Positions 4,380 to 55,665 of a stretch of 59,744 bases of DNA are shown piece after piece (within the stretch, counting starts at the first letter, position 1; the number at the start of each line of letters is the position of its first letter). A program made the translations under genes and the position numbers. The notes beneath the pieces are model-generated. The model was not told the origin of the DNA. It saw only the letters and a program-made list of their open reading frames with translations, and ran no database searches. Origin of the DNA: Escherichia coli (GTDB lineage: Bacteria; Pseudomonadota; Gammaproteobacteria; Enterobacterales; Enterobacteriaceae); assembly GCF_003334255.1 (NCBI RefSeq), contig NZ_QOWU01000029.1; one strand, given 5' to 3'.

Positions 4380-5518
<1,139 letters not shown>

Positions 5519-5520
5519 TA

Positions 5521-6021
5521 TCAAGTGTTTTGTAGAAATTGTTGCCACAAGGTCTGCAATGCATACGCAGTAGCCTGACGACGCACCGCATCACGGTCGC
5601 CGCTGAAGCATTCCCGCCGGGTAATGCCTTCACCGCGGGCAGTGGCAAAAGCAAACCAGACGGTGCCGACAGGCTTCTCTTCACTGCCGCCATCCGGCCC
5701 GGCGATACCACTAATAGACACGGCATAATCAGCACGAGCCGCTTTCAGTGCGCCTATCGCCATTTCCACCACGACGGGTTCACTCACCGCGCCATGCTGC
5801 GCCAGCGTCTCTTCGCGTACGCCGATCATCTGCGCTTTGGCTTCGTTACTGTAGGTGACAAATCCGCGTTCAAACCAGGCGGAGCTACCGGCAATATCGG
5901 TAATCACTTTCGCTACCCAACCACCGGTACAAGACTCGGCAGTTGTTACGGTTGCGCCACGGGCTTTCAGCGCCTGCCCAACCTGTTCACTTAACTGCAT
6001 CAGTTCACTGTCAGTCATCAC
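5521..6021 (-). CDS. pncC: NMN amidohydrolase PncC (CinA-family C-terminal domain protein), about 165 aa
   Basis: ORF track; upstream of recA on the same strand; sequence MTDSELMQLSEQVGQALKARGATVTTAESCTGGW typical of the CinA C-terminal domain. Confidence 0.9.
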   Translation of the reverse strand: MMTDSELMQLSEQVGQALKARGATVTTAESCTGGWVAKVITDIAGSSAWFERGFVTYSNEAKAQMIGVREETLAQHGAVSEPVVVEMAIGALKAARADYAVSISGIAGPDGGSEEKPVGTVWFAFATARGEGITRRECFSGDRDAVRRQATAYALQTLWQQFLQNT

Positions 6022-7485: not shown

Positions 7486-9023
<1,538 letters not shown>

Positions 9024-9033
9024 AGGCTGAAAC

Positions 9034-10188
<1,155 letters not shown>

Positions 10189-10232
10189 TCAACAGCGGAG
10201 ATCCATTAAGGATCTCCGTGAGACTATAGAAT

Positions 10233-10257
10233 GCCTGATGCGCTACGCTCATCAGGC
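10233..10257. repeat. REP-like palindromic element in the srlD-gutM spacer, adjacent to a second hairpin at about 10196-10218
   Basis: gcctgatgcgctacgctcatcaggc resembles REP half-sites; preceded by the perfect hairpin cggagatccattaaggatctccg. Confidence 0.5.
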
Positions 10258-10292
10258 ATACAGGACTTCCGCCACTACATTAAGGAAAAGTT

Positions 10293-10652
10293 ATGGTATC
10301 CGCACTCATCACCGTCGCCGTTATCGCCTGGTGTGCGCAACTGGCCTTAGGCGGCTGGCAAATTTCTCGTTTTAACCGTGCCTTCGACACACTATGCCAG
10401 CAAGGGCGGGTTGGCGTGGGCCGTTCCAGCGGGCGCTTTAAACCGCGGGTCGTGGTCGCCATCGCGCTGGACGATCAGCAGCGCATCGTCGACACCTTGT
10501 TTATGAAAGGACTGACCGTCTTCGCCCGACCGCAAAAAATTCCCGCAATTACCGGTATGCATGCGGGTGATTTACAGCCCGATGTGATCTTTCCCCATGA
10601 TCCACTATCACAGAATGCTCTATCATTGGCGCTTAAACTGAAACGTGGATAA
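10293..10652 (+). CDS. srlM: Glucitol operon activator GutM, 119 aa
   Basis: ORF track; small protein with an N-terminal hydrophobic segment, between srlD and srlR. Confidence 0.9.
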   Translation: MVSALITVAVIAWCAQLALGGWQISRFNRAFDTLCQQGRVGVGRSSGRFKPRVVVAIALDDQQRIVDTLFMKGLTVFARPQKIPAITGMHAGDLQPDVIFPHDPLSQNALSLALKLKRG

Positions 10653-10718
10653 TTTCGTTGTGAATGTTACTTGCTTGCGAAGTTATCATTTTGAAACCTA
10701 AATCAGGTAATCACGCCC

Positions 10719-11492
10719 ATGAAACCTCGTCAGCGTCAGGCCGCCATTCTGGAGTATCTGCAAAAGCAGGGTAAATGCTCGGTTGAAGAATTGGCGCAAT
10801 ACTTTGACACCACAGGCACAACCATTCGCAAAGATCTGGTCATTCTGGAACATGCCGGAACCGTCATTCGTACTTATGGCGGAGTGGTGTTGAATAAAGA
10901 GGAATCCGATCCGCCTATCGATCATAAAACACTCATCAACACCCACAAGAAAGAGCTGATTGCAGAAGCTGCCGTTAGTTTTATCCATGATGGCGATTCG
11001 ATCATTCTTGATGCTGGCAGTACCGTTTTGCAGATGGTTCCCCTGCTCTCGCGCTTTAATAACATCACGGTGATGACCAACAGCCTGCATATCGTCAATG
11101 CGCTATCCGAACTGGATAACGAACAAACTATCCTGATGCCAGGCGGAACGTTTCGCAAAAAATCGGCCTCATTTCACGGGCAACTGGCAGAGAATGCCTT
11201 CGAGCATTTCACCTTCGATAAATTGTTTATGGGCACCGACGGCATCGATCTCAATGCGGGCGTAACCACCTTTAACGAGGTTTATACCGTCAGTAAGGCA
11301 ATGTGCAATGCCGCGCGCGAAGTGATTTTGATGGCGGACTCATCAAAGTTTGGCCGTAAAAGCCCCAACGTAGTTTGCAGTCTTGAAAGCGTCGATAAGC
11401 TGATTACCGACGCAGGTATCGATCCGGCGTTTCGTCAGGCGCTGGAAGAGAAAGGGATCGATGTGATCATAACCGGAGAGAGCAATGAGTGA
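10719..11492 (+). CDS. srlR: DeoR-family glucitol operon repressor, 257 aa
   Basis: ORF track; N-terminal helix-turn-helix and DeoR C-terminal sugar-binding domain. Confidence 0.93.
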
Positions 11493-12450
11493 AGCACTAC
11501 TGAACGCGGGACGTCAGACGTTAATGCTGGAGTTGCAGGAAGCAAGCCGTTTACCGGAACGTCTGGGCGATGATTTTGTTCGCGCCGCCAATATCATCCT
11601 GCACTGTGAAGGCAAAGTGGTGGTTTCGGGAATTGGCAAATCGGGCCACATTGGTAAGAAAATCGCCGCAACGCTTGCCAGTACCGGCACTCCGGCTTTT
11701 TTTGTCCATCCGGCAGAAGCGCTGCACGGCGATCTGGGGATGATCGAAAGCCGCGATGTGATGCTGTTTATCTCTTACTCCGGTGGCGCGAAGGAACTGG
11801 ATCTGATTATTCCGCGTCTGGAAGATAAATCTATCGCGCTGCTGGCGATGACCGGCAAACCGACGTCACCGCTGGGCCTGGCGGCAAAAGCGGTGCTGGA
11901 TATCTCCGTAGAACGCGAAGCCTGCCCGATGCACCTTGCGCCGACCTCCAGCACCGTCAATACCCTGATGATGGGTGACGCGCTGGCGATGGCGGTCATG
12001 CAGGCGCGCGGATTTAATGAAGAAGATTTTGCCCGCTCCCACCCAGCCGGGGCACTGGGCGCTCGCTTGCTGAATAAAGTGCATCATCTGATGCGCCGTG
12101 ACGATGCCATCCCACAGGTGGCGTTAACCGCCAGCGTGATGGATGCGATGCTGGAACTCAGCCGCACCGGTCTGGGGCTGGTGGCGGTATGTGACGCTCA
12201 ACAACAGGTACAAGGCGTCTTTACCGACGGCGATTTACGTCGCTGGCTGGTTGGCGGCGGCGCACTCACCACGCCAGTCAATGAAGCGATGACGGTCGGC
12301 GGCACCACGTTGCAATCGCAAAGTCGCGCCATCGACGCCAAAGAGATCCTGATGAAGCGCAAAATCACTGCCGCACCGGTGGTGGATGAAAACGGCAAAC
12401 TCACCGGCGCAATAAACCTGCAGGATTTCTATCAGGCCGGGATTATTTAA
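11485..12450 (+). CDS. gutQ: D-arabinose 5-phosphate isomerase GutQ (SIS and CBS domains), 321 aa
   Basis: ORF track; SIS-domain motif and tandem CBS domains; start overlaps the srlR stop. Confidence 0.93.
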
Positions 12451-16727: not shown

Positions 16728-16826
<99 letters not shown>

Positions 16827-20939: not shown

Positions 20940-21195
20940 TTTCATCCCTTTACACGCAATCAACGCAGTGTACTGCACCGTTTGCCGATTGTCCTTGCAC
21001 AATCGGCGGGAAAAATATTCAGGTGACCGGTTTCACAAATATAAAAAATGAACAATTCACTCTCTTGCTTATTTAGTGACAACTATTCATGATTTTGTAA
21101 AACCGGTTTCTTAATTCCGTTTCAGCATCGGCATTTTTCCGTCACGTCGACTGATAACAACTACATCTACCCTACTGATAACAGGATAAAATCCG

Positions 21196-24093: not shown

Positions 24094-24175
24094 TGCCGGA
24101 TGCGGCGTGAACGCCTTATCCGGCCTACATGTCGCACGAACCATGAAGGCCCGATAAGCGCAGCGCATCGGGCAA
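24094..24175. repeat. REP cluster between ascB and hycI
   Basis: gtgccggatgcggcgtgaacgccttatccggcctac and a second REP-like unit gaaggcccgataagcgcagcgcatcgggca. Confidence 0.85.
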
Positions 24176-38088: not shown

Positions 38089-38124
38089 CTGCAAATTGCC
38101 GGACAGATCTGCCTGTCCGGCATA

Positions 38125-38478: not shown

Positions 38479-38495
38479 GCTGCCTCCACCTCATT

Positions 38496-38518
38496 AAGAT
38501 GTATTTATATTACATCTT
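38496..38518. promoter_or_regulatory. NsrR-type operator palindrome just upstream of ygbA
   Basis: aagatgtattt-a-tattacatctt is a near-perfect 11-1-11 inverted repeat about 18 bp upstream of the ygbA start. Confidence 0.7.
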
Positions 38519-38764
38519 AATCTTAAAGGGCACTATGACTCCAAAGAAGAAGGGTTAGCCAACCGATACAATTTTGCGTACTTGCTTCATAAGCATCACG
38601 CAAAAGCTGCAAAACAGCATCTTTCCCGGAACCAGCATCAAGAACTCGCCGTTCGCTTCTTCCCCTGAAATGATTAACTCCGGTATCATGTGCGCCTTAT
38701 GTGATTACAACGAAAATAAAAACCATCACACCCCATTTAATATCAGGGAACCGGACATAACCCC

Positions 38765-41332: not shown

Positions 41333-41364
41333 TTCCCGATAGTCTTTTGCTATCGGGAATATTA
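41333..41364 (+). terminator. Putative intrinsic terminator downstream of mutS
   Basis: Hairpin ttcccgatagtcttttgctatcgggaa followed by tatt immediately after the mutS stop. Confidence 0.55.
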
Positions 41365-41431: not shown

Positions 41432-42088
41432 ATGCCATCTACACGCTATCAAAAAATCAATGCCCATCACTATCGCCATATATGGGTCGTTGGTGATATT
41501 CATGGTGAATATCAGTTATTACAATCCCGCTTACATCAACTCTCTTTTTTCCCCGAAATCGACTTACTTATTTCTGTCGGCGATAATATTGATCGTGGAC
41601 CGGAGAGTCTTGACGTCCTGCGCCTGCTAAACCAACCCTGGTTTACGTCGGTTAAAGGCAACCACGAAGCGATGGCGCTTGAGGCATTCGAAACTGGCGA
41701 TGGCAATATGTGGCTTGCCAGCGGTGGTGACTGGTTTTTCGATTTAAATGATTCAGAGCAACAAGAGGCAATAGATCTGTTGCTGAAATTCCATCACCTT
41801 CCACATATTATTGAAATCACTAACGACAACATAAAATATGCCATCGCACATGCAGATTATCCGGGGAGTGAATATCTCTTTGGTAAAGAAATAGCGGAGA
41901 GCGAATTACTCTGGCCTGTTGATCGTGTGCAGAAATCGCTTAATGGCGAGTTACAACAAATAAACGGCGCTGATTATTTTATATTTGGACATATGATGTT
42001 TGATAACATTCAGACGTTCGCTAACCAGATTTATATTGATACCGGATCGCCGAACAGCGGGCGGCTGTCATTTTATAAAATAAAGTAG
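41432..42088 (+). CDS. pphB: Serine/threonine protein phosphatase 2 (lambda-phosphatase-like), 218 aa
   Basis: ORF track; metallophosphatase motifs GDIHG, GDNIDRG, GNHE. Confidence 0.93.
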   Translation: MPSTRYQKINAHHYRHIWVVGDIHGEYQLLQSRLHQLSFFPEIDLLISVGDNIDRGPESLDVLRLLNQPWFTSVKGNHEAMALEAFETGDGNMWLASGGDWFFDLNDSEQQEAIDLLLKFHHLPHIIEITNDNIKYAIAHADYPGSEYLFGKEIAESELLWPVDRVQKSLNGELQQINGADYFIFGHMMFDNIQTFANQIYIDTGSPNSGRLSFYKIK

Positions 42089-42089
42089 T

Positions 42090-42117
42090 CTCATGCTTCT
42101 TCTGTGAAGCATGAGTA
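42090..42117. terminator. Hairpin between convergent pphB and ygbI, candidate bidirectional terminator
   Basis: ctcatgcttcttctgtgaagcatgag perfect stem; a T-rich tract follows on the minus strand. Confidence 0.45.
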
Positions 42118-48138: not shown

Positions 48139-48150
48139 CCTTAATAAAAA

Positions 48151-48176
48151 GGTCCGATGGGCATCGGACCTTTTAT
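48151..48176 (+). terminator. Intrinsic terminator downstream of ygbN
   Basis: Hairpin ggtccgatgggcatcggacc followed by ttttatt. Confidence 0.75.
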
Positions 48177-55059: not shown

Positions 55060-55665
55060 TCAGGATCTGATAATATCGTTCTGTCTCAACAGATCTAATA
55101 ATTGCTGTACCAAATTTGTTACTAATTGTTCACCATTGAGATGAATTTCTGCCGATTCAGGCGCTTCGTAAACGGAATCTATTCCCGTAAAGTAGCGCAG
55201 TTCACCGGCACGCGCTTTCTTATATAAGCCTTTTGGATCGCGGGCTTCGCAAATCGCCAGCGGCGTATCGACAAACACTTCGATAAAGCGCCCTTCTCCT
55301 ACGCGTTCACGAACCATCTGGCGTTCGGCGCGGTGTGGCGAGATAAATGCGGTCAGCACCACCAGTCCGGCTTCAACCATCAAATTCGCCACTTCACCGA
55401 CGCGACGGATATTCTCTTTACGATCGGCATCGCTAAAACCGAGATCGCTGCATAATCCGTGGCGAACATTATCGCCATCCAGCAGATACGTACTGACGCC
55501 GAGTTTATGTAACGCCTCCTCCAGCGCCCCGGCGACCGTTGATTTACCGGACCCGGAGAGGCCGGTAAACCACAGCACTACACCACGATGACCGTGGTGT
55601 AGCTCGCGTTGTTGCACAGTGACCGGATGGCTATGCCAGACGACGTTTTCGTCATGCAGCGCCAT
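55060..55665 (-). CDS. cysC: Adenylyl-sulfate kinase, 201 aa
   Basis: ORF track; P-loop GLSGSGKST. Confidence 0.96.

Follow-up and report, generated by a model that had tools for sequence, protein, structure and literature searches.

The srlD-gutM spacer of Escherichia coli: a REP element and a second hairpin as a probable operon-internal mRNA stabiliser with Rho-dependent attenuation

Between srlD and gutM, at the junction of the structural and the regulatory genes of the srl operon, the RNA folds into two strong stems, one of which is a genuine REP element, and a published RNA 3' end lies directly after the second of them. We propose, with a probability of roughly two in three, that these stems form an operon-internal mRNA stabiliser that works together with Rho-dependent attenuation and leaves an srlAEBD mRNA ended at position 10262 of the window, by which we mean the whole 59,744-nucleotide stretch of DNA that was analysed. 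The element is real and functional-looking; it is also ordinary and belongs to a long-known class. REPs have been known as operon-internal stabilisers and attenuators since the 1980s, existing E. coli annotation includes the REP at this junction and a public Term-seq table lists the RNA 3' end, so that our analysis adds little beyond confirmation. What it does offer is to tie scattered data to the srl operon, in which the low level of the activator GutM and the repressor SrlR relative to the PTS and dehydrogenase genes would be built into the mRNA. Additionally, a comparative pattern and a graded series of natural alleles, both described below, are mildly interesting, with nothing in them that should surprise a specialist.

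According to the open reading frame list and the MG1655 annotation, srlA occupies positions 7504-8067, srlE 8064-9023 and srlB 9034-9405; the regulatory genes are gutM, which encodes the activator and is the first gene 3' of the hairpins (10293-10652, plus strand), srlR (10719-11492) and gutQ (11485-12450). The last structural gene is srlD, for sorbitol-6-phosphate dehydrogenase (9409-10188, plus strand; TGA stop codon at 10186-10188), and the intercistronic spacer between srlD and gutM accordingly measures 104 nt (10189-10292, plus strand). By sequence comparison this spacer is 100% identical to that of MG1655 (a position in NC_000913.3 is the window position plus 2818328), and it was found in 5406 of 5426 complete E. 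coli genomes. In the laboratory strain E. coli S17-1 (NZ_CP040667.1) only the last 76 nt of a 301-nt query match, from about window 10325, which means that this strain lacks the end of srlD, the spacer and the first part of gutM.

Where does the structural signal of the spacer reside? When compared with shuffled sequences, a 121-nt region that includes the spacer folds to -44.4 kcal/mol (z = -4.9). In raw minimum free energy the spacer reaches only the 6th percentile among all 104-nt windows, a modest rank because GC-rich coding DNA folds well too; in other words, the signal sits in two discrete stems and not in bulk folding energy. An inverted-repeat search was swamped by short overlapping palindromes; a count of perfect hairpins (stem of at least 9 bp, loop of 3-8) gave 10 in the whole 59.7-kb window, compared with 1.2 +/- 0.9 in shuffles. 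One of the 10 lies in the spacer and the other nine are at 5500-5521, 20984-21007, 38097-38122, 38495-38519, 41334-41358, 41494-41514, 42090-42115, 48148-48173 and 55578-55602; several of these nine resemble terminators, e.g. the one at 48148-48173, AAAGGTCCGATG..CATCGGACCTTT.

The perfect hairpin of the spacer, which we call hairpin 1, begins 6 nt past the srlD stop codon. Its core at 10196-10218 reads CGGAGATCC-ATTAA-GGATCTCCG (as RNA, CGGAGAUCC-AUUAA-GGAUCUCCG), and a G10195.U10219 pair extends the stem from 9 to 10 bp, i.e. nine Watson-Crick pairs and a closing G.U around the loop AUUAA (10195-10219, plus strand). The energy of hairpin 1 is -17.2 kcal/mol (z = -7.6), with 0 of 200 shuffles equally good, and the hairpin occurs at one place per genome. 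Among the 67 species compared it is present only in the spacers of Escherichia, where, across 14 distinct sequences, 100% of the stem cells are paired; three pairs vary, with changes only of the types GC/GU, UA/UG or CG/UG, and the loop varies at three positions. A covariation analysis of 15 Escherichia sequences, which are too close to one another and for which shuffles are uninformative, found no two-sided compensatory change in either stem. The Escherichia data are therefore compatible with selection on an RNA stem and are not proof of it.

Hairpin 1, whose perfect 9-bp arms stand 5 bp apart, could also be an operator-type inverted repeat for SrlR or GutM, or it could be part of a riboswitch, given that a permissive Rfam scan matched NiCo-AnGGAG (RF03164) to window 10150-10226 (plus strand) with 27.3 bits and E = 0.0046; the only other matches of that scan were two of snoRNA noise. 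However, the srlA promoter region and the rest of the window hold no related half-site or palindrome, and the stem variants of hairpin 1 are G.U wobbles, which keep RNA pairing and lose DNA symmetry. As to the riboswitch, the score falls far short of the gathering threshold, which is 64.5, and it comes from hairpin 1 together with the CAGC/GUGAGAC sequences on either side; the remaining helices of the model do not form, the srlD coding sequence accounts for half of the match, and we judged the match a chance one and rejected it. Either form of this explanation strikes us as exceedingly improbable.

The second stem is a genuine REP element. Its core palindrome, GCCTGATGCGCTACGCTCATCAGGC at 10233-10257 (as RNA, GCCUGAUGCGCUACGCUCAUCAGGC), is two substitutions away from the consensus type GCCTGATGCGCTACGCTTATCAGGCCTAC, which Durrant et al. 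2024 list together with two other classic REP sequences. The fold consists of a 10-bp stem, a C.U mismatch and then 2 more pairs, so that the 25-nt core lies in a 29-nt extended stem (10231-10259, plus strand) with an energy of -18.2 kcal/mol (z = -6.2). At 27 of 29 positions the K-12 copy agrees with GCCTGATGCGCTACGCTTATCAGGCCTAC, the differences being T>C at 10250 and C>A at 10258, and other Escherichia alleles agree at 29 of 29. A 35-nt query around the REP has a median of at least 40 places per genome over all 5426 complete E. coli genomes, the number being a lower bound in 3790 records. Additionally, the element is extragenic, lying between the srlD stop at 10188 and the gutM start at 10293, and it is transcribed, as RNA reads and an RNA 3' end cover it. 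A REP is defined as an imperfect palindrome of 14-40 nt that forms a stem-loop, and the element at 10233-10257 has both the length and the fold. Since gutM is flagged 'REP-adjacent: Yes' in Table 10 of Harris et al. 2026, the REP has already been annotated; the MG1655 RefSeq feature table contains no REP entries, not even where canonical REPs lie, and is therefore uninformative here. Thus the earlier note on this DNA, which had described a 104-bp gap at 10189-10292, a perfect hairpin at about 10196-10218, a REP-like palindrome at 10233-10257 and no U-tract, had drawn the spacer correctly on every count, and what it called REP-like turns out to be a true REP by consensus, copy number, IS621 and annotation. 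A 45-aa open reading frame at 10238-10375, which would start within the REP, was judged spurious by its position. Elsewhere in the window there is a canonical Y-type REP (GATGCGGCGT[A/G]AACGCCTTATCCGGCCTAC) at 16787-16816 (minus strand), between norW and hypF, and another at 24099-24128 (plus strand), between ascB and hycI.

The evidence from mobile elements both supports the identity of the REP and indicates what has become of it in K-12. A conserved tetranucleotide, CTAC/GTAG, adjoins the stem of REPs and is what the REP-associated transposase recognises. In the K-12 allele the C>A change at 10258 has turned it into ATAC, and an ancestral allele in which CTAC is kept was counted in 1230 genomes; the copy in the window is thus a decayed or 'hardened' REP. 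IS621, an element of the IS110 family with a bridge-RNA recombinase, naturally targets REPs at ATCAGGCCTAC, which has a CT core (Durrant et al. 2024). In E. coli SCU-301 (NZ_CP051751.1; positions 1589-2890 of our locus L081) an IS621 copy sits in the srlD-gutM REP, preceded by ...ATCAGGCCT and followed by ACAGG, i.e. at the CT core of ATCAGGCCTAC, equivalent to window 10257/10258, where it separates srlD from gutM. In the K-12 allele this core is changed to AT. The Escherichia spacer carries one REP only and is therefore not a BIME.

Published RNA data show that transcripts end at the REP. In Term-seq data from LB at OD 0.4 (Adams et al. 2021, supplementary files 1 and 3), an RNA 3' end with a mean read count of 4665.72 maps to window 10262 (plus strand; MG1655 2828590), which is 3 nt past the REP stem; the gutM ATG follows 31 nt further on. 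Measured in 800-nt windows, coverage falls across this site from 585 (upstream) to 197 (downstream) when bicyclomycin is absent and from 309 to 199 when it is present; the site has a Rho score of 1.91 and is flagged as being within a significant Rho termination region. Supplementary file 2 of the same study lists a strong Rho termination region peak inside srlR, at window 11018 (plus strand; MG1655 2829346), with coverage of 697/76 without and 386/156 with bicyclomycin, a Rho score of 3.71 and p = 1.7e-18. The 10262 site has an intrinsic-terminator score of 1.51, below the cut-off of 3 (Adams et al. 2021), the tails of the two stems are GUGAGACU and ACAGGACU, without a U-tract, and a terminator and promoter scan gave no site within the spacer. 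The spacer is not an intrinsic (Rho-independent) terminator. In the Term-seq data of Adams et al. 2021 no RNA 3' end is reported after hairpin 1; a further 3' end lies inside srlA, at window 7730 (plus strand; MG1655 2826058), with a read count of 1412.

RNA abundance changes at the same place. We divided the DESeq2 baseMean values of Harris et al. 2026, which are averages across several strains and conditions, by the length of each coding sequence: the mean counts are 5059 for srlA (9.0 per nt), 9888 for srlE (10.3 per nt), 3582 for srlB (9.6 per nt) and 14816 for srlD (19.0 per nt), and 590 for gutM (1.6 per nt), 2494 for srlR (3.2 per nt) and 2536 for gutQ (2.6 per nt). The step across the spacer is thus 6-12-fold, and srlD, the gene that adjoins the hairpins, has the most abundant RNA of the operon. 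All of these RNA data come from LB without sorbitol, i.e. they describe basal expression. A Northern blot has shown a transcript of srlAEBD size (Maes et al. 2016); the RNase E/III tiling-array and YmdB studies report nothing on the srlD-gutM spacer. A sigma-70-like promoter match (TTGGCG-16-GATAAT) is found at the end of gutM, just 5' of srlR (window 10626-10653, plus strand), and the counts per nt of srlR and gutQ are about twice those of gutM; together, these two observations hint at an internal srlR promoter.

The earlier note had expected an RNA-level step at about 10.2 kb that would set the structural genes srlAEBD at another level than the regulators gutM, srlR and gutQ, and it had named uniform coverage, together with no effect of deleting the hairpins, as what would speak against this. 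The step is present, at 9-19 per nt on one side and 1.6-3.2 on the other, coverage across 10262 is far from uniform and the published counts separate the two groups of genes as expected. Its suggestion that the hairpins stabilise the upstream mRNA or partially terminate transcription is supported by the 3' end after the REP and the bicyclomycin-sensitive step, with the qualification that termination apparently depends on Rho and takes place further downstream, and is not intrinsic to the hairpins.

How might two stems and Rho together produce such a pattern? Transcription from the srlA promoter would run on into the regulator genes, and a fraction of the RNA polymerases would be released by Rho in the gutM-srlR region. 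Rho may load on unstructured, C-rich RNA directly 3' of the REP, for which the candidate stretch is 10260-10380 (plus strand). Here C exceeds G (GC skew of -0.14 and -0.13), and the stretch also holds the gutM Shine-Dalgarno sequence (AAGGA, 10283-10287) and the gutM start; its first part, 10260-10310, is unstructured, with a fold of -4.8 kcal/mol (z = +0.7), on which ground we rejected occlusion of the gutM ribosome-binding site. The heterogeneous 3' ends left by Rho, and decay intermediates of the full-length mRNA, would then be trimmed 3'->5' by PNPase/RNase II, which would stall at the REP stem, with hairpin 1 as a conceivable second barrier, a role that is unsupported by any 3' end after it. 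The expected outcome is a discrete, stabilised srlAEBD mRNA with its 3' end at window 10262, and as a consequence the structural-gene mRNA, that of srlD above all, would be 6-12 times as abundant as that of gutM-srlR-gutQ. The features of an exonuclease barrier are present at the site, in that the 3' end comes right after the stem, upstream RNA exceeds downstream RNA and the drop is reduced by bicyclomycin. That the hairpins cause the stabilisation at srl is suggested by their position and by analogous REPs, and we also infer the exonucleases involved and the position of the rut site. The abundance step could come from Rho termination alone, the hairpins only marking the place where trimming stops.

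Precedents for this proposal exist. Rho-dependent transcripts have been found to end at U-less stem-loops, 24% of them REPs, after trimming by PNPase/RNase II, and rut sites lie just downstream of the protective hairpins (Dar & Sorek 2018). The srl site resembles these cases in its 3' end a few nucleotides past a U-less stem-loop, in the downstream excess of C over G and in its bicyclomycin-sensitive read-through; it differs in that the published cases are mostly transcription-unit ends, whereas the srl site is operon-internal and some transcription must continue for the regulators. The malE-malF and hisJ-hisQ REP stabilisers (Newbury et al. 1987; Stern et al. 1984), as they are summarised in Dar & Sorek 2018, likewise place a REP between a high upstream gene and lower downstream genes of one operon, and they share with srl a U-less stem-loop, a more abundant upstream segment and a discrete upstream-only transcript. 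Unlike those systems, srl has a single REP and not a REP pair or BIME, it has a second, non-REP hairpin alongside, and its stabilising role is argued by analogy. In the preprint of Harris et al. 2026, REP325 (yjdM-yjdN) attenuates transcription, in part through Rho, and stabilises the RNA upstream of it, and both it and the srl site combine a partly Rho-dependent reduction of read-through with higher upstream RNA (at srl, the Rho score of 1.91 and the up/down ratio of 6-12); REP325, however, is a large multi-REP array that has been deletion-tested, whereas srl has one REP with a putative role. In the same preprint the median log up/down ratio over 146 REP-containing tandem gene pairs is 0.96, as opposed to -0.09 for controls, and REP effects are described as context-dependent, terminal REPs not uniformly lengthening half-lives. 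Since REPs are mobile and accumulate in permissive spacers, the presence of a REP alone is weak evidence of function.

The stems might instead act on RNA polymerase itself, making it pause or terminate, with or without Rho, so that the 10262 end would be a primary termination product and not a trimmed one. This direct attenuation, which is compatible with the stabiliser reading, would be in keeping with the BIME/REP-associated attenuation of Espeli et al. 2001 as reported in Dar & Sorek 2018, with the partly Rho-dependent attenuation at REP325 and with the Rho score at 10262 itself. The missing U-tract and the intrinsic-terminator score argue against it, as do the location of the main bicyclomycin-sensitive peak inside srlR and the finding that such ends arise by trimming (Dar & Sorek 2018), and we regard it as rather unlikely. 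The BIMEs known as attenuators and as IHF and gyrase sites (Espeli et al. 2001, as cited in Dar & Sorek 2018) have counterparts in the BIME-like REP pairs and arrays of orthologous srl spacers in other genera; the E. coli spacer has its one REP.

Another possibility concerns translation. Hairpin 1 lies so near the srlD stop codon that ribosomes terminating there could stall against it, with less SrlD made as a result, and according to summaries of Liang et al. 2015 translation is lowered by REPs that lie closer than 16 nt to a stop codon; the conservation of hairpin 1 in Escherichia also fits. That published effect concerns REPs, however, and hairpin 1, at 6 nt, is not a REP, whereas the srl REP, at 44 nt, is outside the effective range. 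Furthermore, the RNA of srlD is the most abundant of the operon, and the distance from hairpin to stop codon is variable in the 61 non-Escherichia species. We consider translation control of srlD improbable.

The comparison across enterobacterial species also bears on the stabiliser reading. Taking one genome per species with GutM gave 70 loci, in 67 of which the srlD-gutM spacer could be delimited. The shortest of these spacers measures 41 nt and the longest 612 nt, and the sequence shows no conservation from one genus to another; every one of the 67 species has a strong stem-loop there, the energy of the best single hairpin running from -11.4 to -36.7 kcal/mol with a median of -21.3; at least 5 T in the 8 nt after the best hairpin were seen in 1 of the 67. 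The means by which a hairpin is provided vary widely. About 47 of the spacers carry REP or BIME units; those of Citrobacter, Klebsiella, Enterobacter, Kosakonia and Phytobacter have REPs in inverted pairs or in arrays as long as 612 nt. About 20 carry unrelated GC-rich non-REP hairpins of at least 8 types (for example, CGGCCCCG..GGGGCCG in Trabulsiella and CCCTCTCCC..GGGAGAGGG in Enterobacter), some of them in spacers of 41-46 nt that are made up only of hairpin and Shine-Dalgarno sequence. The median folding energy of the srlD-gutM spacer is -0.42 kcal/mol per nt (z = -4.0), as against -0.21 (z = -1.5) for the adjacent gutM-srlR spacer of the same loci. That every enterobacterial species examined keeps some strong hairpin at this junction is, to our minds, part of what the analysis adds. 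Tandem BIME units expand the spacer to 612 nt in Kosakonia cowanii and to 550 nt in Phytobacter ursingii, and the gutM-srlR spacer is enlarged by REP insertions in Salmonella diarizonae (267 nt) and in some Citrobacter (137-206 nt).

These same data could be read as the record of a passive passenger: the REP would be a selfish or neutral insertion and hairpin 1 accidental, the step would be set entirely by Rho termination or polarity in gutM-srlR and by an internal srlR promoter, and the hairpins would mark exonuclease pauses with no effect on protein output. The REP/BIME content of the spacer does turn over freely between genera, the gutM-srlR spacer of some species has REPs as well, one strain tolerates IS621 in its REP, REP effects depend on context (Harris et al. 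2026) and 750 nt separate the REP from the Rho peak further downstream. On the other side stand the retention of a strong hairpin in all of the species, about 20 of which have non-REP hairpins in minimal spacers, the fact that all changes in the stem of hairpin 1 are wobble-compatible while its loop varies, the five derived E. coli substitutions, described next, which all strengthen the REP stem, and an srlD RNA level twice that of srlAEB, which fits protection of the 3' end. On balance we find a mere passenger unlikely, and the stabiliser reading remains our preferred one.

Within E. coli, the alleles of the REP stem form a nested series. The canonical allele has a stem of -13.2 kcal/mol; the T>C change brings it to -15.3, the further C>A change gives the allele of K-12 and O157 at -18.2, and T>G, A>G and A>C on top of these give the allele of F8111-1SC3 at -30.7 kcal/mol. 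Each of the five derived substitutions strengthens the stem, and only 10-15% of the possible single mutations stabilise it. By exact 44-nt match, the K-12-type allele is carried by 3273 of 5426 genomes, the canonical allele by 1230 and the strongest by 6. It should be kept in mind that the C>A change also abolishes the CTAC motif and the IS621 core. We tentatively hypothesize, with the odds somewhat against us, that there is position-specific selection for 'any strong U-less hairpin' at the srlD-gutM junction across Enterobacteriaceae, that it is met by repeated swapping of unrelated palindromes and that in E. coli a REP has been captured, domesticated through loss of the CTAC/IS621 target and hardened stepwise, from -13.2 to -18.2 and, rarely, to -30.7 kcal/mol. 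If this is true, positive selection would be acting on the stability of a REP stem and would be tuning the ratio of structural to regulatory gene expression. Whatever their origin, natural REP alleles of graded stem strength would provide a clean test system for the relation between REP stability and expression ratio. The gutM Shine-Dalgarno sequence (window 10283-10289) varies in E. coli too, reading AAGGAAAAG in K-12, O157 and relatives and AAGGAGAAG or ACGGAGAAG elsewhere, and the weaker K-12-type version is mostly found together with the strengthened REP allele.

Lastly, one contig of the comparison deserves a comment. DXKH01000030.1 (7.7 kb; our locus L003) is labelled as part of a Citrobacter sp. 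MAG, and the GutM and SrlD that it encodes are 100% identical to those of E. coli, with a spacer of the Escherichia type; the same MAG has another locus as well, one of the Citrobacter type (L040). Mis-binning of E. coli DNA into the Citrobacter sp. MAG probably accounts for this contig.
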